A stretch of 34,598 nucleotides of DNA from a virus (IMGVR_UViG_2541047807_000005), one strand, 5' to 3'; shown: positions 9,188-31,823, numbered from the stretch's first letter. Program-made: numbers and translations. Notes: generated from the sequence alone by a model not told the origin.

Positions 9188-9212
9188 GCCCACCAGAACT
9201 GGCGGGCTTTTG
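9188..9212 (+). terminator. Terminator-like hairpin (GCCCACCAG-aa-CTGGCGGGC then TTTT)
   Basis: 9-bp GC-rich stem with one mismatch followed by T run, inside the cos-containing intergenic region. Confidence 0.35.
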
Positions 9213-9256
9213 CGTAGAGCATGCAGGTGCATGAAAACAACTACATAAAGCGGGCA

Positions 9257-9275
9257 GGCGTGGCGGGGATACGAT
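9257..9275. other. Candidate cos cohesive-end sequence GGCGTGGCGGGGATACGAT
   Basis: Matches the 19-nt P2/186 cohesive end as I recall it (GGCG[A/T]GGCGGGGAAAGCA[C/T]) at about 14 to 16 of 19 positions; located upstream of portal Q as expected. Confidence 0.5.
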
Positions 9276-9344
9276 TGCGCGCAGAAGATTATTATTGGTA
9301 CACTGTCGGTGACTCTCTACGCAGATCTTACACATTAATTTCTA

Positions 9345-10157
9345 ATGGGGCATGCTATGATCTTTCTAAGTCATAATCACCGTGACAAAAGGTTTGTAAG
9401 TGTTATAGCGGAAAAACTAGCAGATGTTTATGGGCGTGATAACGTATTCTACGATTCTTGGTCTATCCAACCCGGAGAGGGTATTATTGACAAGATGAAT
9501 TTAGGAATGGAGAATGTATCGTTCTTTTTCTTTTTTGTCACAGAAAATAGCTTGGCAAGTAACATGGTAAAAATGGAATGGCAAAATGCTTTAATTAAGG
9601 CATCGTCCGGGAAGTGTAAATTTATACCAATACGTTGCCAGAATATATCCTTGCCTGCTCTGCTTACTCAAACGCTATATATTGATCTTTATTCGTATGG
9701 GATCGATGTGGCAATAAGACAAATTATAGATGTCATTAATCAACAAAATACGTATATTCCTAATCCTGAGAAGTATTCAAACCTCTCCTATGATATTAAG
9801 GATGATGATGGGGGTAAGATAGTGAAATTATCAGCAATGGATTTTTTAGAACCAATTGCTGATTTTATGATGATTATGGATAATACAATTAAGCATGATG
9901 ATGTTGTTGTTATGGTCAATGGAGAAAGCTCATTCACTCAGGGGTTTATTGAAAATGCATCTTTAGAAAATGGTATGAAAGTAAGTGGTGCCACTGTTGG
10001 CCTAAATCGGGGGTTAACACCAACGATGCCAATGTATGTTTCTCTTAGGTTAAAGGATGGTTCACCTTTGAATATATTTGCGGTGCTACATCGAGTAAGT
10101 ACCGAGCGTTATGCTCCTATACCACATAAAGCCGATGATGCCTTTAGAGTAAAATAA
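9345..10157 (+). CDS. TIR-domain protein (270 aa) with uncharacterised C-terminal domain; candidate anti-phage effector
   Basis: N-terminal region IFLSHNHRDKRFV...DSWSIQPGEGIIDKM...FFFFFVTENSLASNMVKMEW matches bacterial TIR pattern; AT-rich; between cos-like site and portal gene. Confidence 0.7.
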   Translation: MGHAMIFLSHNHRDKRFVSVIAEKLADVYGRDNVFYDSWSIQPGEGIIDKMNLGMENVSFFFFFVTENSLASNMVKMEWQNALIKASSGKCKFIPIRCQNISLPALLTQTLYIDLYSYGIDVAIRQIIDVINQQNTYIPNPEKYSNLSYDIKDDDGGKIVKLSAMDFLEPIADFMMIMDNTIKHDDVVVMVNGESSFTQGFIENASLENGMKVSGATVGLNRGLTPTMPMYVSLRLKDGSPLNIFAVLHRVSTERYAPIPHKADDAFRVK

Positions 10158-10201: not shown

Positions 10202-11230
10202 TCATAAACAATAGGATGAAAATGCAATAACTTTCTCACCCAGCCAATGGTTTAACTCCTCCATGCGTTTCTGTAATGGCAAAAGTTCATTGCGCACAAA
10301 CACATTTGCGGCCTTCTCCACATCCCCAAACCCTCCAACATTATTAGGCATAATCCCCATCATTTGCGGCGGCACGCGGTGCGCAGCCATCATGTCATCA
10401 CGGCTCACGTTCTTGATATTCAAAAACTCATCCTTCGCCGCCACCTCTGACAACGGGATAATCTGAAGCCCGTCCTTTTTGCCGTTAGGCGAGTACATAA
10501 ACAGGTTGCGGAAGTTACCCGGACCTTTGGCACTTTTCATTGCATTGCGGAGGTTGTTCACGTCCTCCTGGTTCTGCGCAGCATCGGTCATGTACATGAT
10601 GAAGCCTGCATGACTACCGTTAATGTAATACTTGCGGCGGAACAGCGTGGCGGACTCATTGAGCAGGGCGGACGGAATGGCAGAAAGATAGCCGGGCAGG
10701 CCGTAGATTTCCTGGTTAATGTCCGGTTCCATCAGATGAAAAATGCTGCCTTTCGTGAACTGATACGGCTGGGTTGTCATACCGTATTGCACAAACCAGT
10801 AGGTATCCAGGTCTAACCCGCGTCGGGTGTATTTTGCCAGAGCAGGCTCAAGGGCGATAACTTCACCGAAGCGGTTCGTGCGTTTCTCCAGGTAGGCGTT
10901 ACCAAATACCAGATAGTCCTGCACAAAACGTGAAAAAGCCTGCTGGCTGAGCAGCGGGTGAGGGATGTAGGTACTGGTCAGAATGTTGCATTTCACCGCA
11001 ATTGGTGAACTGTGATGCACGGCGGCGCGGAAGGTGCGCGCCAGTCCGTCAAAGCTTACTGGCGGCTCATACCAGCGATCTGTCTGTACGCATTCCACAT
11101 AGTCCAGTAGTTCGCGGCGATCCAGAACAGGAACGGGATCACCGAAGCTGAATGCTTCGGCTGTAGTTTGACTTTTATGCCGGATCTGGTTTGTCGACGC
11201 AGCGCGGTTCTTCTTACTCTTTCCCATCAA
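10202..11230 (-). CDS. Q: Portal protein gpQ
   Basis: 342 aa, P2 gpQ-like size and synteny; 4-nt overlap with terminase stop. Confidence 0.9.
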   Translation of the reverse strand: MMGKSKKNRAASTNQIRHKSQTTAEAFSFGDPVPVLDRRELLDYVECVQTDRWYEPPVSFDGLARTFRAAVHHSSPIAVKCNILTSTYIPHPLLSQQAFSRFVQDYLVFGNAYLEKRTNRFGEVIALEPALAKYTRRGLDLDTYWFVQYGMTTQPYQFTKGSIFHLMEPDINQEIYGLPGYLSAIPSALLNESATLFRRKYYINGSHAGFIMYMTDAAQNQEDVNNLRNAMKSAKGPGNFRNLFMYSPNGKKDGLQIIPLSEVAAKDEFLNIKNVSRDDMMAAHRVPPQMMGIMPNNVGGFGDVEKAANVFVRNELLPLQKRMEELNHWLGEKVIAFSSYCL

Positions 11231-12993
11231 AAAATCTCCACAATATTACTGGTATTGGCGGACTCGCCCTGCAGTGGTTCGTTAAACAGTGCGTGCATTG
11301 TTGCCCAGGCCAGATCGGCGTGGCTGGCTTCTTCGCTGCGGCTGGCTTCATAGGTCGGGCGGTTGCCGCTGGCAGTGGTGGCGCGACGGATTGCCATAAA
11401 GGACTGCGCTATGTCGGTGTGCCCGGCGTCAAACTCCAGGCGGCGGTGGCTAATAATGTCGTAGGCCTTGAGTACCAGGGCGTTTTTAACGTTGGGGTTG
11501 TAGACAAACTCCCGGACGGCAGGAAAAAACGCTTTCACGTTCTCGTAAACCCCGTGACCGACGCCGGTTGAGTCGATACCGATGTATGTCACGTTGTACT
11601 GTTCAGTCAGTTTTTTGATGGCGTCAGCCTGGGCGCGGAAGTCCATCCCGCGCCACTGGTGACGCTCAAGAATGCGGAACTTACCGCCCGGCACGGCTGG
11701 CGGTGCCACCACCACGCACCCGGCGCTGTCGCCGTTTTGCGTACCTTTTGCCGGGTCATAACCGATCCACACTTCGCGCCAGCCAAACGGGCGCAGGGCC
11801 AGTGCATGAAAGTCGGTCCAGACTTCCCAACTGTCCACCATGCACGCCTGCAGCTCGCTGAGCGGGAACACGGACGCGAAATCGTCCACAAACTCGCACA
11901 TCAGCAGGTTCTGGTATTCGTCCGGGCTGTACTCCATGCGCAACTGATCGAGGTCGAAAAGGTTACATCCGCCGCGCACTGCATCTTCCACGGTGACTAT
12001 CTGGCGGTATTGCCCGTCTGCGCACAGCAGGCCGGGGGCCAGATTGCTGTGGGACAGGTCGATGTCCACCTTATCGGCTTTATTGCGCCCACGGTTGAAC
12101 AGCGCACCGGACCAGAACGGATAAGCACTGTGTGTCAGGCTGGATGGCGTGGAAAAATAGGTTTGTCGCCATTTTTTGTGAATAGCCATACCGGAAGCCA
12201 CTTTGCGCAGCTCCTGGAATTTCGGTATCCAGAAATATTCATCCAGATACAGGTTGCCGTGGTAACTCTGGGCCGTGCGGGCATTGGTGCCGAGGAAGTA
12301 AAGCGTGGCTCCGTTAGGAAGCACCATCGGATCGCCTTTCAGCTCCACCTCGACTTCTTTGGCGAAGTCTATGATGTACTGCTTAAAGACGTGAGCCTGT
12401 GCCTTGCTGGCGGAAAGAAAAATCTGGTTACGTCCGGTAAGCAGAGCGTCAATCAGGGCTTCACGGGCAAAGTAAAAGGTCGCGCCGATCTGGCGTGACT
12501 TCAGCAGGTTGCGGATGCGGTTGGTTTTTCCGGCTTCCCACCAGTGGCGCTGGTAGTTGAACATGGAGGAATGGAAGATTTCTTCCAGCTTCTCAATCTG
12601 CTCATCGGTGAAAACATTCTTTTCCGGCTGACGGCGCGGGCCTTTGTTGCGGTTGGCGACGTTAGGGTTTAAGTCGGCTTCGTTGCCGCCATTGTTAAAC
12701 TTGCCGATCCGCGCGTGGCGTTCCGACTGGCGCGCCAGCAGGTCAATCTCTTTGAAATCTTTCCCTTCTTTGTGCTCCTTCATAATGAGCTGGCAGTAGC
12801 GTGCGGCGGTGGTGAGCTGCATCTGATCCAGCGGCCCATAGTCACCCCACTTGTCGCGTTTTTTCCAGCTGTGAACGGTTGCAACTTTCTCGCCCAGCAT
12901 TTCAGCAATGCGGGCTACGCGGTATCCCTGAAAGTACAGCAGCATGGCCTGCCGACGGGGATCGAGATCTGCGGGTGTCAGTGTGGTGTTCAT
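11227..12993 (-). CDS. P: Terminase large (ATPase) subunit gpP
   Basis: 588 aa, synteny divergent from O; P2 gpP-like. Confidence 0.9.
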   Translation of the reverse strand: MNTTLTPADLDPRRQAMLLYFQGYRVARIAEMLGEKVATVHSWKKRDKWGDYGPLDQMQLTTAARYCQLIMKEHKEGKDFKEIDLLARQSERHARIGKFNNGGNEADLNPNVANRNKGPRRQPEKNVFTDEQIEKLEEIFHSSMFNYQRHWWEAGKTNRIRNLLKSRQIGATFYFAREALIDALLTGRNQIFLSASKAQAHVFKQYIIDFAKEVEVELKGDPMVLPNGATLYFLGTNARTAQSYHGNLYLDEYFWIPKFQELRKVASGMAIHKKWRQTYFSTPSSLTHSAYPFWSGALFNRGRNKADKVDIDLSHSNLAPGLLCADGQYRQIVTVEDAVRGGCNLFDLDQLRMEYSPDEYQNLLMCEFVDDFASVFPLSELQACMVDSWEVWTDFHALALRPFGWREVWIGYDPAKGTQNGDSAGCVVVAPPAVPGGKFRILERHQWRGMDFRAQADAIKKLTEQYNVTYIGIDSTGVGHGVYENVKAFFPAVREFVYNPNVKNALVLKAYDIISHRRLEFDAGHTDIAQSFMAIRRATTASGNRPTYEASRSEEASHADLAWATMHALFNEPLQGESANTSNIVEIF

Positions 12994-13039
12994 GGCACAA
13001 ACCTACAGCCTTGAATGAAGGCTTTCCCCGCCTGCGGTT

Positions 13040-13057
13040 TGTGTGGTTGTCGGTACA
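13040..13057. promoter_or_regulatory. Late-promoter activator dyad TGT-N12-ACA (Ogr-type) in the P/O divergent region
   Basis: TGTGTGGTTGTCGGTACA, ~80 bp upstream of the O start codon. Confidence 0.5.
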
Positions 13058-13135
13058 AATACCGCGCATTGTTTCACTGCCCCCATCACCGCAACCATAA
13101 GGCTCCTGTAAGTTTTTTCTAACGGAGCACGGCTC

Positions 13136-13969
13136 ATGACAGTGAAAGCAAAGCGTTTTCGCATCGGGGTGGAAGGTGCCACCACCGACGGACGCGAAAT
13201 CCAGCGTGAATGGCTGGAACAGATGGCAGCCAGCTACAACCCGGCGGTGTATACCGCGCTGATTAACCTTGAGCACATCAAGTCTTATCTGCCGGACAGC
13301 ACCTTTAACCGCTACGGCAAGGTGACGGCGCTGTTTGCTGAAGAAATCACGGAAGGTCCGCTGGCAGGCAAGATGGCGCTGTATGCCGACGTTGAGCCAA
13401 CGGAATCTCTGGTGGAGCTGGTGAAAAAAGGCCAGAAATTATTCACCTCTATGGAAGTCAGCCCGAAGTTTGCTGATACGGGCAAAGCCTATCTGGTCGG
13501 CCTGGCTGCCACTGATGATCCCGCCAGTCTGGGTACGGAAATGCTGACATTCAGCGCCAGTGCAGCCCATAACCCGCTGGCAAACCGCAAGCAGAATCCC
13601 GCCAATCTTTTTACCGCTGCAGAGGAAACGGTGATCGAACTGGAAGAAATCCAGGATGACAAACCGTCCCTGTTTGCCCGTGTCACGGCGCTGTTCACCA
13701 AAAAAGAGCAGTCCGATGACGCCCGGTTCTCTGATGTGCATAAGGCCGTGGAGCTGGTCGCCACTGAGCAGCAGAACCTGAGCGCACGCACCGAAAAATC
13801 CCTGTCTGAGCAGGAAGAACGTCTGTCTGAGCTGGAGACTGCCCTGCAGGCACAGCAGACCGCCTTTAACGAACTGGTGAATAAGCTGAGTCATGAAGAC
13901 AGCCGCCAGGACTACCGCCAGCGTGCAACAGGCGGTAACGCCCCCGCTGACACTCTGACCAATTGCTGA
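13136..13969 (+). CDS. O: Capsid scaffolding protein gpO
   Basis: 277 aa, synteny, ACGGAG RBS. Confidence 0.85.
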   Translation: MTVKAKRFRIGVEGATTDGREIQREWLEQMAASYNPAVYTALINLEHIKSYLPDSTFNRYGKVTALFAEEITEGPLAGKMALYADVEPTESLVELVKKGQKLFTSMEVSPKFADTGKAYLVGLAATDDPASLGTEMLTFSASAAHNPLANRKQNPANLFTAAEETVIELEEIQDDKPSLFARVTALFTKKEQSDDARFSDVHKAVELVATEQQNLSARTEKSLSEQEERLSELETALQAQQTAFNELVNKLSHEDSRQDYRQRATGGNAPADTLTNC

Positions 13970-13985
13970 TGGAGCACAAAACCTG

Positions 13986-15044
13986 ATGAAGAAGAATACC
14001 CGCTTTGCTTTTAACGCTTACCTGCAGCAGCTGGCGTGTCTGAACGGTGTGGCAGTTGAAGAACTGTCCAGCAAGTTCACCGTGGAGCCGTCTGTGCAGC
14101 AGACGCTGGAAGACCAGATCCAGCAATCCGCCGCTTTCCTGACGCTGATTAACGTCACGCCAGTGACCGAGCAGTCTGGTCAGCTGCTGGGGCTGGGTGT
14201 TGGCAGCACCATTGCCGGAACCACTGACACCACCGCGAAAGAGCGTGAACCTGTCGATCCTACGCTGATGGTCGATGTGGAATACAAATGCGAGCAGACC
14301 AACTTTGACACGGTACTGACCTACGCGAAGCTGGACCTGTGGGCGAAGTTTCAGGATTTCCAGGTGCGTATCCGTGACGCCATCGTGAAACGTCAGGCAC
14401 TGGACCGCATCATGATCGGCTTTAACGGCGTGAAGCGTGCGAAAACCTCCAACCGTAGCGAAAACCCGCTGCTGCAGGATGTGAATAAAGGCTGGCTGCA
14501 GAAAATCCGTGAGGATGCACCGGATCACGTCATGGGCAGCACCACCACGGGTGGTGAAACCACACCGGGTGCGGTGAAAGTCGGGAAAGGTGGCGAATAT
14601 GCCAACCTGGACGCTGTGGTGATGGATGCGGTCAATGAGCTTATCGACGTGGTCTACCAGGACGATGACGATCTGGTGGTGATTTGCGGTCGTGAACTGC
14701 TGTCTGACAAGTATTTCCCGCTGGTCAACAAAGAGCAGGAAAACAGTGAAAAACTGGCAGCCGATATGATTATCAGTCAGAAACGCATGGGCGGTCTGCA
14801 GGCCGTGCGTGCGCCGTTCTTCCCGCCGAATGCGCTGCTGATCACCCGTCTGGATAACTTGTCCATCTACTGGCAGGAAGACACCCGCCGCCGTTCAGTT
14901 ATCGACAACCCGAAACGTGACCGGATTGAAAACTTTGAATCCGTTAATGAAGCCTATGTGGTTGAGGACTACCGCTGCGCCGCACTGGTGGAAAACATCC
15001 AGATTGGTGATTTCAGCGCCGCCGCAGCCGAAACCGGAGCGTAA
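13986..15044 (+). CDS. N: Major capsid protein gpN
   Basis: 352 aa, synteny and size match P2 gpN. Confidence 0.9.
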   Translation: MKKNTRFAFNAYLQQLACLNGVAVEELSSKFTVEPSVQQTLEDQIQQSAAFLTLINVTPVTEQSGQLLGLGVGSTIAGTTDTTAKEREPVDPTLMVDVEYKCEQTNFDTVLTYAKLDLWAKFQDFQVRIRDAIVKRQALDRIMIGFNGVKRAKTSNRSENPLLQDVNKGWLQKIREDAPDHVMGSTTTGGETTPGAVKVGKGGEYANLDAVVMDAVNELIDVVYQDDDDLVVICGRELLSDKYFPLVNKEQENSEKLAADMIISQKRMGGLQAVRAPFFPPNALLITRLDNLSIYWQEDTRRRSVIDNPKRDRIENFESVNEAYVVEDYRCAALVENIQIGDFSAAAAETGA

Positions 15045-15047
15045 TCC

Positions 15048-15698
15048 ATGAGCCTGAGTCCCGCACGGCAGCATCGCCTGCGCGTTCAGGCTGAACAGGC
15101 CGCCCGCGAGGGCGGCAGTGTTCGCCACGCATCGGGCTATGACCTGATGCTGCTGCAACTGGCGGAAGACCGCCGCCGTCTCAAGGGCGTTCAGTCCACG
15201 GTCAAAAAAGCGGAAATCAAGGTGGAGCTGCTGCCGAAGTACGCCGCCTGGGCAGAGGGTGTCCTGGCTGCCGGAGGCGCTCAACAGGATGACGTGCTGA
15301 TGTACGTGATGCTGTGGCGCATTGATGCCGGAGATTATGCCGGGGCGCTGGAGATCGGGCGTCACGCCCTGCGTCATGGCTGGGTGATGCCGTTGGGTAA
15401 CCGCAACGTGCAGACCGTGCTGGCAGAGGAAATGGCAGACGCGGCGCAGAGCGCAATGCTTGCCGCCACCGGCTTTGATGCTGATCTGTTGCTGCAGACG
15501 CTGGAGCTGACAGACGGTCTGGATATGCCGGACCAGTCACGGGCACGTCTGCATAAAGCGATTGGCGCTGTCCTGAGTGAAAGCAATCCGGCTTCCGCCC
15601 TTAATCATCTCAACCATGCGTTACAGCTCGATCCCCGCTGTGGCGTGAAAAAAGACAAACAGCAGCTGGAGCGCAGACTGCGCAATGACAGCCGCTGA
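15048..15698 (+). CDS. M: Terminase small/endonuclease subunit gpM
   Basis: 216 aa, synteny after N. Confidence 0.8.
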   Translation: MSLSPARQHRLRVQAEQAAREGGSVRHASGYDLMLLQLAEDRRRLKGVQSTVKKAEIKVELLPKYAAWAEGVLAAGGAQQDDVLMYVMLWRIDAGDYAGALEIGRHALRHGWVMPLGNRNVQTVLAEEMADAAQSAMLAATGFDADLLLQTLELTDGLDMPDQSRARLHKAIGAVLSESNPASALNHLNHALQLDPRCGVKKDKQQLERRLRNDSR

Positions 15699-15793
15699 CA
15701 GAACGTGCCCCCGCGCACGGGCGGCACGGGGTGGCGAAAGGCACTGCCACATCAAAACCCCGTCCACCGCCCTTTATTTCAGGAGAAAGCAGC

Positions 15794-16258
15794 ATGAAGT
15801 TTGTTGCGCCAGAACAGGCACCGGAACAGGCGGAAATCATCAGAAATACGCCGTTCTGGCCTGATGTGGACCTGTCGGAGTTTCGCAGCGTGATGCGCAC
15901 TGACGGCACGGTGACGCAGCCGCGTTTAAAGCAGGTTGCGCTGTCGGCAATTTCGGAGGTCAACGCAGAGCTGTATGAGTTTCGCAGACGCCAGCAGATG
16001 CTGGGGTATGCCTCGCTGGCAGAGGTTCCGGCGGAACAGCTGGACGGCAAAAGTGAGCGCATTCAGCACTATTTCAACGCGGTTTACTGCTGGGCACGCG
16101 CCATGCTCAACGAACGTTACCAGGACTATGACGCCACGGCATTGGGTGTGAAGCGGGGCGAGGAACTGGCGGAAGCAAGCGGTGATTTGTGGCGTGACGC
16201 CCGCTGGGCCATCAGCCGGGTGCAGGATGCGCCGCACTGCACAGTGGAGCTTATCTGA
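15794..16258 (+). CDS. L: Head completion protein gpL
   Basis: ATG 15794 with AGGAG RBS (ORF track extends to 15731); synteny. Confidence 0.8.
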   Translation: MKFVAPEQAPEQAEIIRNTPFWPDVDLSEFRSVMRTDGTVTQPRLKQVALSAISEVNAELYEFRRRQQMLGYASLAEVPAEQLDGKSERIQHYFNAVYCWARAMLNERYQDYDATALGVKRGEELAEASGDLWRDARWAISRVQDAPHCTVELI

Positions 16259-16458
16259 TGAAAGTGCGTGCGCATCAGTATGACACGGTGGACGCGCTTT
16301 GCTGGCGTCATTACGGGCGCACGCAGGGTGTCACGGAGCAGGTACTGAAGGCAAATCCGGGGCTTGCCGAATACGGCCCCTTTTTACCTCACGGGCTGCA
16401 GGTGGAGCTGCCGGACATTCCGACCACCACCGTGCAGACCGTCCAGCTATGGGACTGA
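16258..16458 (+). CDS. X: Tail protein gpX
   Basis: 66 aa, start overlaps L stop, P2 gpX-like size. Confidence 0.75.
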   Translation: MKVRAHQYDTVDALCWRHYGRTQGVTEQVLKANPGLAEYGPFLPHGLQVELPDIPTTTVQTVQLWD

Positions 16459-16461
16459 ATT

Positions 16462-16677
16462 ATGACGCTTGAGCGAATCAGCGCCTTTATCACGTATTGC
16501 ATCGCCGTCGTGCTGGCCTGGCTGGGCGATTTGTCCATCAAGGATGCCTCAACGCTGGGCGGCCTGATGATCGGTGTGCTGATGCTGGCTATCAACTGGT
16601 ACTACAAACACAAAGCCTACCAGCTTCTGCGCGACGGGCAGATCTCGCGGGAGGACTATGAATCCATCAATCGTTAA
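16462..16677 (+). CDS. Holin, two predicted transmembrane segments (pinholin-like)
   Basis: 71 aa with two hydrophobic stretches and charged C-terminus; immediately upstream of endolysin. Confidence 0.65.
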   Translation: MTLERISAFITYCIAVVLAWLGDLSIKDASTLGGLMIGVLMLAINWYYKHKAYQLLRDGQISREDYESINR

Positions 16678-17173
16678 ACGCTGCCTTGTCGGGGCCGTGC
16701 TGGCTATTGCTGCCACGCTGCCGGGTTTTCAGCAGCTTCACACCTCCGTGGAAGGGCTGAAACTGATTGCCGATTACGAAGGTTGTCGTCTGCAGCCGTA
16801 TCAGTGCAGCGCGGGTGTCTGGACCGACGGCATTGGTAATACGTCGGGCGTCATTCCCGGCAAAACCATTACGGAGCGACAGGCAGCAGAAGGGCTGATC
16901 TCCAACGTGCTGCGTGTGGAGCGGGCGCTGGAAAGGTGTGTGAAGCAACAGCCGCCGCAGAAGGTATATGACGCTACGGTGTCGTTTGCCTTCAACGTGG
17001 GAACGGGCAATGCCTGCAGTTCCACGTTGGTGAAATTGCTCAACCAGCGGCGCTGGGCGGATGCGTGCCGACAGTTGCCGCGCTGGGTTTATGTAAAAGG
17101 TGTGTTTAATCAGGGGCTGGATAACCGCCGTGCGCGGGAGATGGCCTGGTGCCTTAAAGGAGCTGGACTATGA
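16658..17173 (+). CDS. SAR endolysin, T4/P1 Lyz-type lysozyme
   Basis: Motif EGCRLQPYQCSAGVWTDGIGNT (P1 Lyz-like catalytic region) preceded by weakly hydrophobic Gly/Ala-rich N-terminus with Cys (signal-anchor-release domain). Confidence 0.85.
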   Translation: MNPSIVKRCLVGAVLAIAATLPGFQQLHTSVEGLKLIADYEGCRLQPYQCSAGVWTDGIGNTSGVIPGKTITERQAAEGLISNVLRVERALERCVKQQPPQKVYDATVSFAFNVGTGNACSSTLVKLLNQRRWADACRQLPRWVYVKGVFNQGLDNRRAREMAWCLKGAGL

Positions 17174-17598
17174 CGCGTGCGCTGGCGGTAGTGGCGGCGC
17201 TGGCACTCGTTGCGCTGGGCTGGCAGTCGTGGCGGCTTAACAGCGCCAGCCACACCATCGAAACGCAGCGCGCGGCGCTGAACAGTAAAGCGCACGAACT
17301 AACGAAGAAAAATAGCCAGCTGATCAGTCTGTCCATTCTGGCTGAAACCAATAACCGGGAGCAGGCGCGGCTCTATGCCGAAGCAGAACAGACCAGCGCG
17401 CTGCTGAGACAACGACAACACCGGATCGAGGAACTGAAACGTGAGAACGAGGATTTACACCGCTGGGCTGATACTCCTTTGCCTGCTGACATTATCCGGC
17501 TGCGGGAACGTCCGACACTCACCGGAGGTGCAGCTTACCGTCAGTGGTTGTCCGCGAGTGACGCCGTGTCGGCTGGATCAGGCAGCGCCGCGCACTAA
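17170..17598 (+). CDS. lysB: LysB, Rz-like i-spanin
   Basis: N-terminal TM segment, coiled-coil-like Q/E/R-rich body; position after endolysin. Confidence 0.7.
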   Translation: MTRALAVVAALALVALGWQSWRLNSASHTIETQRAALNSKAHELTKKNSQLISLSILAETNNREQARLYAEAEQTSALLRQRQHRIEELKRENEDLHRWADTPLPADIIRLRERPTLTGGAAYRQWLSASDAVSAGSGSAAH

Positions 17599-17731
17599 CG
17601 GTGATCTGAACGCGTTGCTGGATGAAACGGAGGCCGCCTGGGCAGTCTGTGCAGACAAAGTGGACATGATTATTGCGTGTCAGGAGCGAAACAGTGAACA
17701 AACCACAGTCCCTGCGCCACGCCCTCAATAA
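17441..17731 (+). CDS. lysC: LysC, Rz1-like o-spanin lipoprotein, overlapping lysB in another frame
   Basis: Lipobox LTLSGC after signal peptide; Pro-rich; embedded/overlapping arrangement typical of P2 lysB/lysC; GTG start assumed. Confidence 0.6.
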   Translation: MRTRIYTAGLILLCLLTLSGCGNVRHSPEVQLTVSGCPRVTPCRLDQAAPRTNGDLNALLDETEAAWAVCADKVDMIIACQERNSEQTTVPAPRPQ

Positions 17732-18125
17732 AGCGGTGCCTTATGTCCGCAATAACCCGGACAAACTGCATCTGTTTGTGGATAACGGTTCGCTGGTTGC
17801 CACGGGGGCCAGCTCCATGTCATGGGAGTACCGTTACACCCTGAACGTGGTGATTGAGGATTTCAGCGGCGACCAGAATCTGCTGATGGCCCCGGTTTTG
17901 CTGTGGCTGCGGGATAACCAGCCTGATGCCATCAATAATCCGGCGTTACGGGAAAAACTATTCACCTTTGAGGTGGACATTCTGCGCAACGATGTCTGTG
18001 ATATCAGCCTTAACCTGCAACTGACGGAGCGGGTGCTGGTCAGTACTGACGGCAGTGTGTCGAGCGTTGAAGCGGTAGCGGAACCCGATGAACCTGAAGA
18101 AATGTGGACGGTGAAACGTGGCTGA
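17694..18125 (+). CDS. R: Tail completion protein gpR
   Basis: GTG 17694 with AGGAG RBS; KPQSLRHAL...LFVDNGS resembles P2 gpR N-terminus. Confidence 0.8.
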   Translation: MNKPQSLRHALNKAVPYVRNNPDKLHLFVDNGSLVATGASSMSWEYRYTLNVVIEDFSGDQNLLMAPVLLWLRDNQPDAINNPALREKLFTFEVDILRNDVCDISLNLQLTERVLVSTDGSVSSVEAVAEPDEPEEMWTVKRG

Positions 18126-18561
18126 ACTGCAGAAAGTGGACGACTGGCTGAGTGCCTTGCTGGCGAATCTGGAGCCAGCTGCAAGAAGCCGTATGATGCG
18201 GCAGCTGGCGCAGGAACTGCGCCGGACACAGCAGCAGAATATCAGGATGCAGCGCAATCCTGACGGCAGCAGCTATGAACCGCGACGGTTAACAGCACGC
18301 AGTAAAAAAGGCCGTATCAAACGTCAGATGTTTGCAAAGCTGCGCACCACAAAATACCTGAAAACTGCCGCCAGCGCCGATTCTGCCAGCGTGCAGTTTG
18401 AAGGTAAGGTACAGCGCATTGCCCGTGTTCATCACTACGGCCTGCGTGATCGCGTCAGCCGTAAAGGCCCAGAGGTACGTTACGCTGAGCGAAATTTATT
18501 AGGAGTAAATAGTAACATCAAAACATCGATAAAGGATGTTTTGATGCAATGGCTTTTATAA
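18118..18561 (+). CDS. S: Tail completion protein gpS
   Basis: 147 aa, synteny; last ~25 codons are AT-rich (possible insertion junction). Confidence 0.8.
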   Translation: MAELQKVDDWLSALLANLEPAARSRMMRQLAQELRRTQQQNIRMQRNPDGSSYEPRRLTARSKKGRIKRQMFAKLRTTKYLKTAASADSASVQFEGKVQRIARVHHYGLRDRVSRKGPEVRYAERNLLGVNSNIKTSIKDVLMQWLL

Positions 18562-18578
18562 ATTAAGCTTCATTTGAC

Positions 18579-19316
18579 TCATTCATTGTCAAATAATTTT
18601 TGCTCTTTCAATATTTGTGTCGAAAAATTATTGCTTATTAATTTTACAAGCTTGCCGCACAAATTAAATGAATATCTAAAATAATCTAAGTCAGGGATGA
18701 GGTATTCTTTTTCTTCAGAGGATATTCCTGCCTCTAATAATTTTTTTTCATATCTTTGGTCCTTCACCCAATTATTATGGACTCCTGTGTCTCGTCTTGC
18801 TTTAATTTCAATGTATTGTTTTAAGAGATGTTCTATTTTCTTTTTGTCTAAGCATAAGAGTTTGCATAATTTATTGATGTATTCTTTGGGTGATCCAAAT
18901 GTGAGACTCGCGACTCCTTCGTTGACTAGATAGTCAAAAAGTTCATCTTCAGATAATGACTTAAACACCCCATAATCACACTTAATTTTATTTAGTTTTT
19001 CTGGATTGATCCTGAAGGTCAACTTCATGATTTCAATAATGTAATCTTCAAATGCTGAAACAAGCGAACTAAAGCACAATGATGGCATATGTTTTGTTAT
19101 TAAATCATGCCGTATTCCTTTATCTGAGATTTCAGGTGAATGTTTTTCCAGAAAGCATTCAAGATTTGTATAAGCCTCATAAAGCTGAGGGTTAGTTTCC
19201 TCATTGGCGTGAGAGATGGCAATGTTTTGAAATATAATTGTTCTGAATAAAATATCAGCTTTAATAAAATATGATGATGTGATTTTATCCAGGAAGAGAT
19301 AATTATCGGAGTGCAT
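18579..19316 (-). CDS. AT-rich moron protein (245 aa) with R-x4-H HEPN-like motif; candidate abortive-infection/toxin RNase
   Basis: ORF opposite to the late operon between S and V; GAGGAA RBS; motif ARRDTGVH at residues 174-180 (coords ~18777-18797); strongly AT-rich. Confidence 0.6.
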   Translation of the reverse strand: MHSDNYLFLDKITSSYFIKADILFRTIIFQNIAISHANEETNPQLYEAYTNLECFLEKHSPEISDKGIRHDLITKHMPSLCFSSLVSAFEDYIIEIMKLTFRINPEKLNKIKCDYGVFKSLSEDELFDYLVNEGVASLTFGSPKEYINKLCKLLCLDKKKIEHLLKQYIEIKARRDTGVHNNWVKDQRYEKKLLEAGISSEEKEYLIPDLDYFRYSFNLCGKLVKLISNNFSTQILKEQKLFDNE

Positions 19317-19343
19317 ATCATTTCCTCAAGGTAATGCGTCTAT

Positions 19344-19361
19344 TGTATCAGGCTTTATACA
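19344..19361. promoter_or_regulatory. Late-promoter activator dyad TGT-N12-ACA upstream of V
   Basis: TGTATCAGGCTTTATACA, perfect TGT-N12-ACA, ~50-60 bp upstream of candidate V starts. Confidence 0.55.
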
Positions 19362-19397
19362 TGAATGGATTGTGGATGAATATAATCATTTTCGTCA

Positions 19398-19988
19398 ATG
19401 ATACAGGCCATGAACGCACAATTAACCGAAATCATGCGCCTTATCACCAACCTGATCCGCACAGGTGTAGTCACCGAAGTGGACCGGGAAAACTGGCTTT
19501 GCCGGGTGAAAACGGGCGACCTTGAAACCAACTGGATTAGCTGGCTGACGCTGCGTGCCGGGAATGCCCGCACATGGTGGCGACCATCGGAAGGTGAGCA
19601 GGTGGTGCTGCTGAGTCTGGGAGGCAATCTGGAAACCGCCTTTGCGTTGCCCGCTGTCTATTCGAATCAGTTCGCTCCACCGTCGACGTCGGCGGACGCT
19701 TGCGTGACAGAGCATCCTGACGGCGGCTGGTTTGAATATGAACCCGCCACCGGGCGCTGGTATGTCAGGGGCATCAAATCAATGGTCATTGAGGCCGCTG
19801 ACAACATCACCATGAAAACCAGTGAGTTTGTACTGGAGGCTGACCGCACGAGCATTAACAGCGAAGTGGTGATCAATGGTGGCGTTACCCAGGGCGGCGG
19901 AGCGATGAGTTCTAACGGGATCGTGGTTGATGCGCATCAGCATACTGGCGTCCTGAAAGGCGGCGATACAACCGGAGGCCCGGTATGA
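19398..19988 (+). CDS. V: Baseplate spike/assembly protein gpV (alternative start ATG 19410)
   Basis: N-terminus aligns with P2 gpV (LIRTGVVTEVD...CRVKTG); synteny. Confidence 0.85.
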   Translation: MIQAMNAQLTEIMRLITNLIRTGVVTEVDRENWLCRVKTGDLETNWISWLTLRAGNARTWWRPSEGEQVVLLSLGGNLETAFALPAVYSNQFAPPSTSADACVTEHPDGGWFEYEPATGRWYVRGIKSMVIEAADNITMKTSEFVLEADRTSINSEVVINGGVTQGGGAMSSNGIVVDAHQHTGVLKGGDTTGGPV

Positions 19989-20266
19989 CGCTTTATAGCG
20001 GGATGAACAATACCAGCGGCAAAGTCATTACTGATATTGACCATCTGCGCCAGTCGGTGCGGGACATTCTGCTGACACCGCAGGGTAGCCGTATTGCCCG
20101 TCGTGAATATGGTTCCCTGCTGTCGGCACTGATAGACCAGCCACAAAATCCAGCATTACGCCTGCAGGTCATGTCGGCAGTGTATGTGGCGCTGAGCGGG
20201 CAGCGTAATAACGGTGTGCCTGTTTCCCTTTCCGTATCAACAGGAGCAGAGAATGGCAGTGATTGA
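19985..20266 (+). CDS. W: Baseplate protein gpW (lysozyme-like fold family)
   Basis: N-terminal region resembles P2 gpW (DIDHLRQSVRDILLTPQGSRIARREYGSLL); shorter than P2 gpW. Confidence 0.75.
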   Translation: MTLYSGMNNTSGKVITDIDHLRQSVRDILLTPQGSRIARREYGSLLSALIDQPQNPALRLQVMSAVYVALSGQRNNGVPVSLSVSTGAENGSD

Positions 20267-21161
20267 CCTTTCGCAGTTGCCTGCGCCGCAGATTGTGGAT
20301 GTGCCGGACTTTGAGACGCTGCTTGCCGAACGCAAGGCCGAATTTGTTGCGCTTCATCCGAAAGATGAGCAGGAAGCAGTGATCCGCACGCTGGAGCTGG
20401 AATCTGAACCCGTCACTAAATTGTTGCAGGAGAACGCTTACCGTGAGTTGCTTCTGCGCCAGCGCATTAACGAAGCCGCGCAGGCGGTGATGGTGGCTTA
20501 CGCGATGGGCGGCGATCTTGACCAGCTCGCTGCCAACTACAACGTGAAACGCCTGACGGTGACGACTGCTGATAATGATGCTGTGCCGCCCGTTGCAGCT
20601 GTGATGGAAAGCGATGAAGCGTTACGCCTGCGTGTGCCTGCAGCCTTTGAAGGGCTTTCTGTTGCGGGGCCAACTGCAGCTTATGAATTTCATGCCCGAA
20701 GCGCCGACGGCCGGGTGGCGGATGCCAGTGCAACCAGCCCGGCACCTGCAGAGGTGGTGCTGACTGTCCTTAGCCGCGAAGGCGATGGAACTGCAGAAAA
20801 AGACCTGCTGGACGTGGTGGAAAAAGCTCTGAACAGTGAGAACGTCCGCCCGGTGGCTGACCGTCTTACGGTTCGCAGCGCAGAAATCATCCCGTATCGC
20901 GTGGAAGCCACCATTTTTCTCTATCCGGGACCGGAAGCAGAGCCGGTAATGGCAGCGGCAAAAGCCAGCCTGCAGAAGTACATTGCCAGCCAGACGAGGC
21001 TTGGTCGGGATATTCGCCGTAGCGCCATCTTTGCTGCTCTGCATGTTGAGGGTGTTCAACGTGTGGAACTGGCTTCTCCGCTGGCGGATGTGGTCCTGAA
21101 CAAAATACAGGCGGCATCATGTACGCAGTGGAGCGTAACCAACGGAGGAACGGATGAATAG
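20253..21161 (+). CDS. J: Baseplate wedge protein gpJ
   Basis: ATG 20253 with AGGAG RBS; MAVIDLSQLPAPQIVD matches P2 gpJ start. Confidence 0.85.
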   Translation: MAVIDLSQLPAPQIVDVPDFETLLAERKAEFVALHPKDEQEAVIRTLELESEPVTKLLQENAYRELLLRQRINEAAQAVMVAYAMGGDLDQLAANYNVKRLTVTTADNDAVPPVAAVMESDEALRLRVPAAFEGLSVAGPTAAYEFHARSADGRVADASATSPAPAEVVLTVLSREGDGTAEKDLLDVVEKALNSENVRPVADRLTVRSAEIIPYRVEATIFLYPGPEAEPVMAAAKASLQKYIASQTRLGRDIRRSAIFAALHVEGVQRVELASPLADVVLNKIQAASCTQWSVTNGGTDE

Positions 21162-21759
21162 TCTGCTGCCACCGGGTTCAACTTCACTGGAGCGCCGACT
21201 GGCGCAAACCTGTAGCGGGATTTCTGATTTGCAGGTGCCGCTGCGTGACTTGTGGAATCCGGCTACCTGTCCGGTCAGCTTCCTGCCTTATCTCGCCTGG
21301 GCGTTCTCTGTGGATCGCTGGGACGAGGGCTGGACAGAAAGCGTCAAACGCCAGGTAGTGAAGGATGCTTTTTATATTCATCAGCATAAAGGAACCACCA
21401 GTGCCGTGCGGCGGGTGGTGGAACCGTTCGGATTCCTGATCTGCATTATTGAGTGGTGGCAGACCGGAGAAACACCGGGCACGTTTCGCCTGGATATCGG
21501 CGTGCAGGACCAGGGCATCACTGAAGATACCTATCTGGAACTTGAGCGACTGATAAGCGATGCCAAACCATGTAGCCGCCACATGATCGGCATGTCCATC
21601 AATCTGCAGACCAGCGGCCCGCATTGGGTGGGAGCCGCCAGCTATCTTGGCGAAGAAATCACGATCTATCCGTATATCAACGAAACGATTATTTCCGGTG
21701 GCACCGCGCATGAAGGCGGGGCGGTCCATGTTATTGACACAATGAGAGTGAATCCATGA
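21154..21759 (+). CDS. I: Baseplate protein gpI
   Basis: 201 aa, synteny, overlaps J end and H start. Confidence 0.85.
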   Translation: MNSLLPPGSTSLERRLAQTCSGISDLQVPLRDLWNPATCPVSFLPYLAWAFSVDRWDEGWTESVKRQVVKDAFYIHQHKGTTSAVRRVVEPFGFLICIIEWWQTGETPGTFRLDIGVQDQGITEDTYLELERLISDAKPCSRHMIGMSINLQTSGPHWVGAASYLGEEITIYPYINETIISGGTAHEGGAVHVIDTMRVNP

Positions 21760-23165
21760 GCACAAAATTTTATACCCTGCTGACGGATATTGGCGCGGCG
21801 AAACTTGCCAGCGCCGCCGCGCTCGGTGTGCCGCTAAAAATTACCCATATGGCGGTGGGCGATGGCGGCGGAGTATTGCCAACGCCGGACGCAAAGCAGA
21901 CGGCACTGGTAAATGAGAAACGCCGGGCTGCGCTGAATATGCTTTATATCGACCTGCAGAACAGCAGCCAGATTATTGCTGAACAGGTGATCCCTGAAAA
22001 CGAGGGCGGTTGGTGGATACGTGAAGTGGGCCTGTTTGATGAGTCAGGGGCATTGATTGCCGTGGGCAACTGCCCGGAAAGCTATAAGCCGCAACTGGCT
22101 GAAGGCAGCGGGCGCACCCAGACCGTGCGTATGGTGTTGATTACCAGCAGCACGGACAATATCACCCTGAAAATCGACCCTGCCGTAGTGCTGGCAACCC
22201 GCAAGTATGTGGATGACAAGGCACTGGAGCTGAAGGTGTACGTGGATGACCAGCTGGCAAAACACCTTGCCGCACCGGACCCGCATTCACAATATGCACA
22301 GAAAGAAAGTCCGACGTTTACCGGGACACCAAAAGCGCCAACGCCTGCGGCAGGCAATAACACCACGCAGGTTGCGACCACTGCGTTTGTTCAGGCGGCA
22401 CTGACGGCTCTTATTAATGGTGCGCCAGCCACGCTGGACACACTGAAAGAAATAGCCGCAGCCATTAACAATGACCCGAAATTCAGTACCACCATTAATG
22501 ATGCGCTGGCACTCAAAGCGCCGCTGTCGAGTCCTGCACTTACCGGGACGCCGACAGCCCCCACGGCGGCACAGTCGGTCAACAATACACAGATTGCCAC
22601 CACGGCTTTTGTGAAATCGGCGATTGCGGCAATGGTGGGTTCTGCACCTGCTGCACTGGATACACTGAACGAACTGGCGGCGGCGCTGGGAAATGCCCCG
22701 AACTTTGCCACGACAATGTTGAATGCTCTGTCAGGTAAACAACCGCTGGACAATACGCTGACTAATTTGAGTGGAAAGGATGTAGCAGGTCTTCTCACAT
22801 ACCTTGGTTTGGGAGAAGCGGCTAAAAGGAATGTAGGTATAGGGGCGAATCAGATACCTGATATGAGCCTGTTCGCGTCAATTAATACCGTAACGGCTGC
22901 TGCGCAAAAATTTCCGTCTGGATTAATTTTACAGTGCGGTCAGTTGAATGGTGCCCCGAATGTATCTTCAACATACGGGATGAGGTTTCCGATGACGTTC
23001 TCAAGAGTCATTGCTGTCGTAGTTACATTGAACGTTACTGGCGCGGCAGGGCAGCCGACTGTATCGGCGACAAGTGTCCAGAACACTGGATTTAATATTA
23101 CGGTGTCGCCCGGTTCAGGATATGGTTCATCTGCTGATGCGTATTACATTGCAATGGGATATTAA
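21756..23165 (+). CDS. H: Tail fibre protein gpH (conserved N-terminal part, AT-rich variable C-terminal part from ~22800)
   Basis: 469 aa; Ala/Thr-rich repeats; composition shift at the candidate crossover site. Confidence 0.85.
22792..22817. other. Candidate Gin/Hin/Cin-type inversion crossover site TTCTCACATACCTTGGTTTGGGAGAA inside gene H
   Basis: 26-bp imperfect palindrome with ACC..GGTTT core resembling hix/gix/cix sites, at the constant/variable junction of the tail fibre gene. Confidence 0.45.
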
Positions 23166-23169
23166 CGAA

Positions 23170-23589
23170 ATGTCATATTTTTATTCTGCATCGACAAACG
23201 GATTTTATTCGACTGAATTTCACGGCACCAATATTCCTGATGATGCAGTGGAAATCTCGGAATCAGAGTGGAAAACACTGATTAATTCACAGAGTGTAAC
23301 AAAAATGATTACCTGTGGTGAGAACGGTCACCCTGTCATTGTTGACCGTCCTTCTCCAACACCAGAACAATTAGCCTTAATAAATAATGAAAAGAAATCT
23401 GCACTGATAGCAGAGGCAACGAATGTAATAGCGCCGCTTCAGGATGCGGTTGATTTAGATATGGCAACAGATGATGAAACGAAACTGTTACTGGCATGGA
23501 AAAAATATCGCGTGCTATTGATGCGTGTTAATACTTCAACAGCACTCGATATTGAATGGCCTACGTCTCCGGCAGTTCAGGCCCGATGA
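23170..23589 (+). CDS. G: Tail fibre assembly protein gpG (Tfa)
   Basis: ATG 23170 just after H stop; N-terminus [17 protein letters not shown] typical of Tfa chaperones. Confidence 0.75.
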
Positions 23590-24154
23590 CATCCGGCGCG
23601 GTGCTGGTATCTGTTGCCGTCACCGCATCAATGTAATCCAGCACAGCGTTAAGCCGGGTGGTTTCTGTTTGCGACAGTTTTCGCCCGGTCTGCAATTTCA
23701 ACTGAATCAGACTGATGGAAGCCATAGCAGCATCAATCAGTGACTGGCGCTGTACTTCTGCCGTTTCTACTGCGGCACCGTGTTGTGCCTCAGTATCTGT
23801 CACCCATTTCTCACCATCCCATTTATCGTATGGCGTTAACGGTGAAAGCGTGACATAACCGTCTTTGATGGCACCGATATAATCCACAGTAATAGCTGCG
23901 CCATTTTCTGTTGAGTAAACAGTCTCATTGCGATGGTCTTCTTCATGGCTCCATCCCTTGCCCGTAAATACTGCCACTTTCCCCGGAATGTTTTCGCCCG
24001 GGGCAATACCAGTGGAACAGGCGGGCATACTTACACCAGTATTAATATATTCATCAGAGCAGCCCATATACTCAGATGTTTCAGCATCATAATAAAAACA
24101 ACGCATATCGCCCGGCACTGTAGCCAGCCCATTTTCATCAAAAACAGGTTTCAT
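23561..24154 (-). CDS. Alternative tail fibre assembly protein (inverted-orientation Tfa, U-prime-like), orphan
   Basis: Tfa-like N-terminus ([29 protein letters not shown]); convergent with G, 3-prime ends overlap; no cognate alternative fibre C-terminus present. Confidence 0.7.
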
Positions 24155-24179
24155 TATTTAGCCCTCACCAGAAAGTTAA

Positions 24180-24437
24180 ATGCAATATTTTTTTTATGTC
24201 ATGGGTGCTCTGGCTGAAATGGAACGCGAACTGATAGTTGAACGCACCAGGGCAGGGCTGGCTGCAGCTCGTGCCAAAGGCAGAGTAGGTGGACGCCGTA
24301 CTAAGTTGACCACCGAACAGTGGGCACAGATTGGACGTTTACTCGAGGCCGGAGAATCAAGACAACGTATTGCACTGATTTTTGATGTGGGCGTTTCTAC
24401 CATTTATAGAAAATTTCCGGCGAATAAGAGCAATTAA
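24180..24437 (+). pseudogene. Truncated serine DNA invertase (Gin/Hin/Pin family), C-terminal ~85 aa only
   Basis: FFYVMGALAEMERELIVERTRAGLAAARAKGRVGGR... matches the C-terminal half of Gin; N-terminal catalytic domain (~100 aa incl. active-site Ser) absent. Confidence 0.8.
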
Positions 24438-24494
24438 TCGCTCTGAATCAGCATTATTTTGATTATCCCTGCAAGTAGACAAATACCCTCATTT

Positions 24495-24512
24495 TGTATG
24501 AATAACTGTACA
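24495..24512. promoter_or_regulatory. Late-promoter activator dyad TGT-N12-ACA upstream of FI
   Basis: TGTATGAATAACTGTACA centred ~85 bp upstream of FI start codon. Confidence 0.55.
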
Positions 24513-24588
24513 ACTACACTTAGCTGTTTGTCAGGCACAATCACTTCAACATAGGGCGAAGCCTAATCCAATCAGGAGGTTCGCCACT

Positions 24589-25761
24589 ATGGCTCAGGAT
24601 TACCACCACGGGGTGCGCGTTGTTGAAGTCAACGAAGGCACCCGATCCATTACCACGGAGAGCACCGCCATCGTGGGCATGGTCTGCACGGGCGATGATG
24701 CCGATGCAAAAATGTTTCCTCTTAATAAACCCGTACTGATCACTGATGTGCTGACTGCCAGCGGTAAAGCGGGTGAGTCCGGCACGCTGGCCCGTTCGCT
24801 GGATGCCATCGCTGACCAGGCAAAACCAGTGACCGTTGTTGTGCGTGTGCCGCAGGGTGAAACGGAAGAAGAAACCACGACCAATATCATCGGCGCAGTG
24901 ACTGCTGAAGGTAAAAAAACAGGCATGAAAGCCCTGTTATCTGCCCAGACACAGCTCGGCGTTAAACCGCGCATTCTCGGCGTGCCAGGTCACGATAACA
25001 AAGCCGTTGCTACTGAGTTGCTGAGCGTGGCGCAAAGCCTGCGTGGGTTTGCCTACCTGTCAGCGTATGGCTGCAAGACGGTACAGGAGGCGATCACTTA
25101 CCGTGAAAACTTCAGCCAGCGCGAAGGAATGCTGATCTGGCCCGACTTTACTGGCTGGGACACGGTGCTGAATGCCGAAGCAACGGCATATGCCACCGCT
25201 CGTGCGCTTGGTCTGCGTGCCAAAATTGATGAGCAGACCGGGTGGCACAAAAGCCTGTCCAACGTGGGCGTGAACGGTGTCACCGGAATTTCTGCAGATG
25301 TGTTCTGGGATCTGCAGGACCCGGCAACCGATGCAGGTCTGCTTAACCAGAACGATATCACCACGCTTATCCGCAAAGACGGTTTCCGCTTCTGGGGTTC
25401 CCGCTGTCTGGGCGATGATCCGCTCTTTGCCTTCGAAAACTACACCCGCACGGCGCAGGTGCTGATGGACACGATGGCAGAAGCACACATGTGGGCGGTG
25501 GATAAACCGCTTAACCCGTCGCTGGCCCGCGACATTATTGAAGGTATCCGCGCCAAAATGCGCAGCCTGGTCAGTCAGGGCTATCTCATTGGTGGTGATT
25601 GCTGGCTGGATGAGTCGGTGAACGACAAAGACACGCTGAAAGCCGGAAAACTCACCATCGACTATGACTACACGCCAGTGCCGCCACTTGAAAATCTGAT
25701 GCTGCGCCAGCGCATCACCGATCAGTACCTGGTGAATTTCGCCAGCCAGGTCAGCGCGTAA
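24589..25761 (+). CDS. FI: Tail sheath protein gpFI
   Basis: 390 aa, AGGAGG RBS, synteny and size. Confidence 0.9.
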
Positions 25762-31743: not shown

Positions 31744-31823
31744 CGCTGCCGCCATTTTGTCGCCATCGTTAAAAAACAGTGCTTCTAACGTCATGATTTT
31801 AAACGGCATAAATTTCAGGCAAC

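Follow-up and report, generated by a model that had tools for sequence, protein, structure and literature searches.

Three probable late-promoter dyads in a P2-like prophage

This study concerns three TGT-N12-ACA dyads that adjoin the first genes of the late operons in IMGVR_UViG_2541047807_000005, a stretch of viral DNA of 34,598 nucleotides (nt) that is called the window below, always at its full length. The window is a complete P2-like (Peduoviridae) prophage, in which the whole P2 gene order was recovered by tblastn with P2 proteins. On the plus strand, this search placed O at 13136-13969, followed by N, M, L, X, the lysis genes, R and S (the last extending to 18561), V at 19410-19988, followed by W, J, I, H and G, and FI at 24589-25761, followed by FII, E, T, U and D. 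On the minus strand, it placed the terminase gene P at 11227-12993 and the portal gene Q at 10202-11230, so that the dyads adjoin O, V and FI as well as P on the opposite strand. The first dyad, TGTGTGGTTGTCGGTACA (13040-13057), can be read in both directions and lies 78 nt before the O ATG at 13136. The second, TGTATCAGGCTTTATACA (19344-19361, plus strand), lies 48 nt before the V ATG at 19410, and the third, TGTATGAATAACTGTACA (24495-24512, plus strand), lies 76 nt before the FI ATG at 24589. Each is an exact match to the motif, as a sequence-only reading of this DNA had reported for the regions upstream of O, V and FI.

The same reading had seen in these dyads the architecture of P2 late promoters that depend on the activator Ogr, and their sequence, position and conservation bear this out. 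The activator gene itself is present at 31525-31743 on the plus strand and encodes a zinc finger protein of the Ogr/Delta family with 72 amino acids. We found the product to be 51% identical to P2 Ogr over 72 amino acids (tblastn), with a Pfam match to Ogr_Delta (PF04606) at E=5e-22. In particular, alignment with P2 Ogr and with the B protein of phage 186 revealed that C4, C7, C30 and C35, which form the CX2CX22CX4C zinc site, were invariant. The motifs, their placement, their conservation and the activator gene were thus observed directly. Taken at the level of sequence, every defining feature of the P2/186/P4-type late promoters is present, and we consider it very probable that the three dyads bind the prophage's own Ogr approximately 55-58 base pairs (bp) upstream of sigma-70 late starts, which would be served by a weak -10 element (nAnnnT) and no recognisable -35 element.

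Motif frequency, placement and matrix scores

Three observations weigh against this interpretation. First, the bare TGT-N12-ACA motif was not enriched in the window, where we counted 8 exact matches compared with 9.58 ± 3.08 expected from dinucleotide-preserving shuffles. Five further exact matches were found at 12982, 25805, 27800, 33625 and 34280; the last four are located in coding or host DNA, and the match at 12982 overlaps the start codon of P. Second, the matrix scores of the O and FI dyads, described below, are partly circular, as the training set was composed of homologous sites in close relatives. Third, the tail gene D (30326-31434) is split into two frames (30326-31069 and 31015-31434). 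The octamer ACCCGCGA occurs three times in tandem at 31013-31040 in this gene, and the region is 8 bp longer than in Klebsiella phage 4LV2017, where D is intact. Because gene D is split by this 8-bp repeat expansion, the prophage may be tail-defective and may not complete a lytic cycle, unless the split is an assembly error; the split is without effect on the promoters.

As the motif frequency by itself is at chance level, the case rests on placement and conservation. We defined the slots for the dyads from the P2 and 186 annotations only, as the distance from the end of the dyad to the ATG (76-88 nt for O, 45-50 nt for V and 68-78 nt for FI), and the exact motif occupied all three slots, for which the joint chance probability was about 1.8e-8. 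A weight matrix was then built on the sites of relatives, with the window's own cores excluded. The highest-scoring sites of the window were the FI dyad (23.7 bits), the O dyad (21.8 bits on the plus strand and 21.2 bits on the minus strand) and the V dyad (17.2 bits). In shuffled sequences, the third-best score never exceeded 11.6, and the maxima had a mean of 10.8 and a highest value of 18.6. Only two of the five further exact matches entered the top 25, namely 12982 (15.6) and 34280 (6.8). The matrix scans of the prophage revealed no site comparable to the three dyads elsewhere; a match upstream of ogr (31236-31253) scored 11.3 bits, which is at noise level.

The circularity was mitigated with cross-class matrices, each trained on one promoter class and used to rank approximately 69,000 window positions. 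A matrix trained on V sites alone ranked the FI dyad second and the O dyad third or fifth, and a matrix trained on FI sites alone ranked the O dyad second or third and the V dyad fifth. The idea that the dyads are chance occurrences of a low-information motif with six specified bases, with no regulatory role, draws on the unremarkable count and on the five other matches in coding or host DNA. We regard this as barely conceivable, since all three dyads fall into narrow slots predicted from P2 and 186 (joint P ~2e-8), possess additional conserved positions, rank among the top five positions with cross-class matrices and do not vary upstream of the genes in relatives, including those whose flanking DNA is unrelated.

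Conservation in relatives

For this comparison, 80 loci each around the FI, V and O homologues were fetched from IMG/VR. An exact dyad was present in every distinct upstream sequence, at a distance from the ATG of 69-76 nt for FI (71/71), 45-48 nt for V (40/40) and 78 nt for O (20/20), which makes 131 distinct sequences in total. The DNA around the V and FI dyads was often unrelated between relatives. FI genes with 98% identity were preceded by at least three families of FI promoter (PF) sequence, one of which diverged right up to the FI ATG. The V-upstream set included 14 mutually unrelated contexts, with different morons or none, which had almost nothing in common beyond the dyad, its spacing and a weak -10 element. 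As far as sequence comparison goes, the V set is the most telling evidence of conservation. When P2 and 186 were added to give 16 V contexts, an A was found at -11 and a T at -7 relative to the ATG, each in 11 of the 16.

The window and its relatives share the extended consensus T-TGT-(G/A)(T/C)(C/G)A ... (A/G)(T/C)-ACA-A. The further conserved positions are a T at -1 of TGT (approximately 98%), an A after ACA (66%) and the inner bases RYCA. The half-sites TGTG..../....CACA resemble those of the host regulator CRP, and the dyads could in principle serve CRP or another protein of the phage. The CRP consensus is TGTGA-N6-TCACA, which corresponds to TGT-N10-ACA. In contrast, the spacer was 12 bp at all three dyads and at 131/131 sites of the relatives, which is not the CRP spacing. 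Moreover, the dyads coincide in location with the annotated Ogr/B activator sites of P2 and 186, their occurrence is restricted to the regions ahead of late operons, and the prophage has a conserved Ogr gene. Binding of a different protein is therefore highly improbable, and we favour Ogr as the ligand.

Promoter geometry

The intergenic regions of the window were too diverged for an informative MAFFT alignment of the three regions with P2, and we therefore anchored the comparison on the dyad, the ATG and the annotated start. In the P2 RefSeq record (NC_001895), an activator site at 3057-3087 carries the label 'pO, pP promoters', with starts at 3016 (minus strand) and 3127 (plus strand). The pV activator site is at 10239-10266, with a start at 10308 that is the first base of the V coding sequence, and the pF activator site is at 17555-17583, with starts at 17626-17628. 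Measured from the dyad centre in an 18-bp frame, the P2 starts lie at +55.5 for the O promoter (PO), +55.5 for the P/Q promoter (PP), +57.5 for the V promoter (PV) and +57.5 for PF. According to the 186 record (NC_001317), pV and p12 share one B-protein site (3798-3817), and pJ has a site of its own.

In the window, the A of the V ATG lies at +57.5 from the centre of its dyad, exactly as in P2, where the ATG is the start. The A of the FI ATG is at +85.5 (P2, +82.5), with a gap between dyad and ATG of 76 nt in the window, 73 nt in P2 and 72 nt in 186. The A of the O ATG is at +87.5, compared with +95.5 in P2 and with +87.5 in 186, as calculated from its 78-nt gap. Read in reverse, the O dyad places the A of the P ATG (12993) at +55.5, compared with +78.5 in P2. 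As read from the dyad-anchored comparison, nAnnnT hexamers follow each window dyad after 34-35 nt, as they do in P2, where the equivalent hexamers are GAAACT (at positions 35-40 after the PO dyad), TAGCCT, CAATCT and GAAAAT and stand 6-8 nt before the annotated starts. In both respects, dyad to ATG and dyad to hexamer, the window has the distances of P2 promoters whose annotated starts lie at +55.5 to +57.5.

From these distances, we predicted the starts of the window promoters. PO has the -10-like hexamer AACCAT (13093-13098, plus strand) 35 nt after the dyad, and its start is predicted at approximately 13104-13106, which would give O a leader of about 30-32 nt. PV has AATGAT (19397-19402, plus strand), and its predicted start at 19408-19410 is at the V ATG or at most 2 nt from it. 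PF has CAACAT (24547-24552, plus strand), with a start predicted at approximately 24559-24562 and an FI leader of about 28-30 nt. PP has TAGGTT (13000-13005, minus strand) 34 nt after the dyad and at -12 to -7 from the A of the P ATG, with a start predicted at 12993. The core ACATAGG around CAACAT was kept in several otherwise different PF versions of the relatives. A scan for consensus sigma-70 promoters in the PV and PF regions returned no plus-strand promoter, and at PV none at or after the dyad, a result that fits activator-dependent promoters.

We also observed that PO (13093-13103) and PF (24547-24556) have a longer core in common, A(A/C)CATA(A/G)GG, which spans the -10 element and the discriminator. 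This longer core was likewise kept in PF versions of the relatives that differ otherwise, and it may be a lineage-specific core element of late promoters.

The proposed V promoter lies in an exchangeable S-V cassette

The sequence-only reading had proposed that the moron insertion between S and V left the V promoter intact. We found instead that PV lies inside the swapped block, which extends from 18492 to 19409, has its right edge at the V ATG and comprises the last ~70 nt of S, the moron open reading frame (ORF) and the whole PV promoter. To determine its boundaries, 17900-20100 was compared by blastn with seven relatives that lack the window's block. Most relatives could not be anchored on the final 60 nt of S, because the 3' end of S belongs to the variable block. 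In the five relatives with S sequence, homology ended within the 3' end of S, at 18470-18504; on the other side, all seven relatives regained homology at the V start codon, six of them at 19410 and one at 19409. The base composition of the block was also distinct, with a GC fraction of 0.32 (0.35 from the dyad to the ATG) compared with 0.52 in S and 0.57 in V.

Since homology resumes at the V start codon, the dyad and the entire core promoter belong to the swapped block. The block was common to only one of the 80 relatives retrieved, and the alternative S-V cassettes carried their own unrelated PV sequences, keeping only the dyad and its spacing. Judged by these alignments, PV is part of an exchangeable S-V cassette and was not left intact beside an insertion. 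The S-V slot, occupied by orf30 in P2, is a known hot spot for acquired genes (PMC3091744).

The moron ORF of the window (18579-19316, minus strand) encodes 245 amino acids and had no Pfam match. A hairpin with a 13-bp stem lies at 18515-18547, in the 3' end of S and inside the variable block, and it is terminator-like on the minus strand. This hairpin may terminate the moron transcript and perhaps attenuates the O operon.

The divergent P-O region

For the P/Q promoter, the sequence-only reading had reported no clean dyad. In P2 and 186, a single P-O dyad is annotated for both divergent promoters, and in the P-O intergenic regions of 14 phages, we found at most one candidate dyad in each. A second dyad for PP was sought in 12994-13135 with one-mismatch and matrix scans, and none was found beyond the shared dyad; a TGT at 13070 had no ACA partner. 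The dyad at 13040-13057 therefore probably serves PP as well, as the reverse reading of the PO site, because one shared site is annotated in P2 and 186, the other phages have at most a single candidate and the two orientations of this dyad have near-equal scores.

The gap between this dyad and the P ATG was 69 nt in P2, 186, SEN1, EtG and ST147-VIM1phi7.1 and 66 nt in Klebsiella phage 3LV2017. It was 46-47 nt in the window, Klebsiella phage ST15-OXA48phi14.1 and Yersinia phage YenM_06.16-2. Pseudomonas phage BR319a, Burkholderia phage phiE12-2 and Ralstonia phage RSA1 have a single dyad with a 13-nt spacer (TGT-N13-ACA) in their P-O regions, and the gap in BR319a and phiE12-2 is also 47 nt, provided that P begins at the first ATG. 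The P genes of BR319a and phiE12-2 are annotated with GTG starts 21 and 36 nt upstream of the ATG that restores the 47-nt spacing, which suggests on comparison that these start codons are mis-annotated.

The PP core of P2 maps base for base on the window: the end of the dyad is followed by 34 nt, then by TAGCCT in P2 and TAGGTT in the window, then by 6 nt and the start. In the window, these 6 nt lead to the A of the P ATG, where P2 has its annotated start. At -12 to -7 from the P ATG, the sequence is TAGCCT in the Yersinia phage, TATGTT in the Klebsiella ST15 phage and TAGCGT in the Ralstonia phage. Of the window and the Klebsiella ST15, Yersinia, BR319a, phiE12-2 and RSA1 phages, five had a TAnnnT hexamer 6-7 nt before the P ATG, and the best fit in BR319a was CAGCAT. 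From this spacing, we infer that the P-Q messenger RNA (mRNA) of the window is leaderless and starts on the A of the P ATG.

Two findings speak against a leaderless P. The geometry varies between phages: RSA1, in addition to its 13-nt spacer, has a gap of 40 nt and a dyad approximately 5 bp nearer to the ATG. Moreover, a Shine-Dalgarno-like AGG lies 8 nt before the P ATG of the window, overlapping the proposed -10 element, which makes a leadered transcript possible. According to this alternative, P/Q transcription starts at least 15 nt upstream of the P ATG, the O dyad is not at -55, and P is translated with a leader from the Shine-Dalgarno-like AGG; the dyad would be used at approximately -35 to -40, or the activator would use a degenerate site that was not recognised. 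The sequence AGGT 8 nt before the ATG is in its favour, as are the P mRNAs of P2 and 186, which have a 23-nt leader with a GAGG Shine-Dalgarno sequence. On the other hand, exact, one-mismatch and matrix searches of 13058-13135 gave no second candidate, and the P2 PP core maps nucleotide for nucleotide with its +1 on the A of the ATG. The Klebsiella ST15, Yersinia, Pseudomonas and Burkholderia phages repeat the 46-47-nt gap, and most of them, like RSA1, have a TAnnnT-type hexamer 6-7 nt ahead of the ATG. PV, whose P2 counterpart gives a leaderless message, has this geometry too. We consider a leadered P unlikely, although a serious contender, and we prefer a leaderless P.

A passage of PMC4633059 names P2 among the classic leaderless messages, citing Christie & Calendar 1985, and a literature search for the phrase 'P2 gene V' together with 'leaderless' gave no match. 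By analogy, the precedent for a leaderless P would be V, whose start the P2 annotation sets on the ATG. We know of no description of a leaderless terminase (P) mRNA in P2-like phages.

The match over the P start codon

The further exact match at 12982, TGTGCCATGAACACCACA (12982-12999, minus strand), overlaps the P start codon (TGTGCC-ATG-AAC-ACC-ACA). We rejected this match as a PP site or an auxiliary site, as it is derived from codons and its conservation is limited to close relatives. A functional second Ogr site at this position, for example an autoregulatory or negative one that occludes PP, would have an analogue in the second Delta site reported at the P4 sid promoter. In support of such a role, the match is exact, has a good left half-site (TTGTGCCAT), scores 15.6 as the sixth site in the window, lies 58 bp from the main dyad and was present in 19 of the 20 distinct sequences of close relatives. 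However, its score is inside the range of the shuffle maxima (up to 18.6), and its rank falls to 13-14 with matrices trained on FI sites. The match is composed of the P start codon and the N-T-T codons, and its conservation among close relatives is accounted for by coding constraint. No equivalent dyad was read at the P start of Klebsiella ST15-OXA48phi14.1, Yersinia YenM_06.16-2 or P2. A functional second site is thus quite improbable, and the dyad at 12982-12999 is probably fortuitous on this evidence.

Proposed mode of action

After replication has started, Ogr would bind each TGT-N12-ACA dyad and recruit RNA polymerase. For P2 Ogr, contact with the C-terminal domain of the alpha subunit is established, and we assume the same of the Ogr of the window. 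From 13040-13057, PO would turn on O-N-M-L-X-lysis-R-S in the rightward direction, and PP would turn on P-Q leftward from the same dyad. PV would turn on V-W-J-I-H-G from 19344-19361, and PF would turn on FI-FII-E-T-U-D from 24495-24512. The V mRNA would be leaderless as in P2, and the P mRNA would be leaderless too. Each moron cassette would bring its own Ogr-responsive promoter, with its right boundary at the V start codon.

A broader proposal would be that, in the lineage of the window, one dyad fires two divergent promoters and yields a leaderless P-Q mRNA, as it apparently does in the Yersinia, Pseudomonas (phiCTX-like), Burkholderia and Ralstonia phages. P2 and 186 would then be exceptions that acquired a 23-nt leader with a Shine-Dalgarno sequence, and late promoters would be exchanged together with moron cassettes, with junctions at the start codon of V and, in at least some FI-upstream variants, at that of FI. 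We give this proposal as a whole about an even chance of being correct.

The dyads are an ordinary element of a known kind, and the known mechanism is unchanged. Their value for annotation is that they fix four late transcription units for a widespread family of P2-like prophages of Klebsiella and E. coli, in which the apparently missing PP promoter would be the reverse reading of the PO site. Two points would be modestly new, namely a leaderless terminase mRNA from a bidirectional dyad and a late promoter that travels with a moron cassette. The former would probably be a second late mRNA without a leader and would add to the small number of leaderless messages of enterobacterial phages. The latter, an S-V cassette with its own Ogr-responsive promoter up to +1, would explain how morons can be swapped without disturbing the expression of the baseplate genes.

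Other features of the prophage

Megablast matched the window to Peduoviridae of Klebsiella and E. coli at 97% identity, Escherichia phage Cartapus among them. The integrase gene int (55-1038, minus strand) stands at the left end and is followed by the early genes. At the right end, the attR core is at 31816, with a host permease gene beyond it. The immunity repressor (1434-2090, minus strand) is of the 186 CI type (Pfam Phage_CI_repr and Phage_CI_C) and not of the P2 C type; the prophage thus combines a 186-like switch with P2-like late genes. A cargo slot between the replication gene A and Q (8246-10157), which corresponds to the old/tin position of P2, contains genes for a DUF4145 protein (8246-8986, minus strand) and a TIR-domain protein (9345-10157, plus strand), both of which are candidates for anti-phage defence.

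Upstream of PF, the region 23074-24437 contains two opposed tail-fibre-assembly genes (23074-23589, plus strand, and 23561-24154, minus strand, the latter with the Pfam match Caudo_TAP). These are followed by a DNA invertase that is apparently split or truncated into ORFs at 23933-24217 and 24180-24437; the second of these contains only the end of the Resolvase domain and HTH_7 and stops approximately 60 bp before the PF dyad. The region looks like the remnant of an invertible tail-fibre switch of the Gin/Cin type.

Comparison with known systems

Among the closest known systems is that of P2, whose Ogr-dependent promoters PP, PO, PV and PF serve the same four operons in the same order. In both phages, the distance from the centre of the activator dyad to the start, annotated in P2 and predicted in the window, is 55-58 bp. 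In both, a single site, annotated in P2 for the two divergent promoters, lies between P and O, the V ATG lies 48 nt after the dyad (in P2, it is the annotated start), and ogr is located after D, next to att. Some differences were also present. The intergenic sequences of the two phages cannot be aligned. The window dyads are perfect TGT-N12-ACA, whereas the P2 PO/PP and PF sites are TGT-N12-CCA in the same frame and the P2 PV site is TTG-N12-ACA in frame, with TGT-N11-ACA as the nearest exact form. The P side of the window is 23 nt shorter, which removes the P leader and its Shine-Dalgarno sequence, and it is for this reason that P is predicted to be leaderless. Additionally, the S-V moron of the window is unrelated to orf30.

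The B-dependent promoters of 186 (p12, pV and pJ) are similar in spacing, with gaps of 78 nt for the O homologue and 72 nt for the FI homologue compared with 78 and 76 nt in the window, and B is an Ogr homologue that is 54% identical to the window protein. In contrast, the 186 sites are TGT-N12-CCA, the leader of the P homologue has 23 nt, and only the left half-site is kept upstream of orf32, the V homologue. The immunity region of the window is 186-like, and the structural genes of the window resemble 186 no more closely than they do P2.

For Stenotrophomonas phage Smp131, a published prediction places sites resembling TGT-N12-ACA ahead of the late operons and gives PP' and PO' one 18-bp dyad in common (nt 4381-4398) that is read both ways; the Ogr of this phage carries CX2CX22CX4C (PMC3931495). 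Smp131 differs in that it belongs to another host clade and has another operon arrangement; its sites are computational predictions only, as they are here. Among leaderless phage mRNAs, exemplified by lambda cI and P2 V, the V start was mapped on the A of the ATG in P2, and the P gene of the window has the same geometry. Unlike lambda cI and P2 V, the leaderless P of the window is predicted from the spacing and the placement of the -10 element only.

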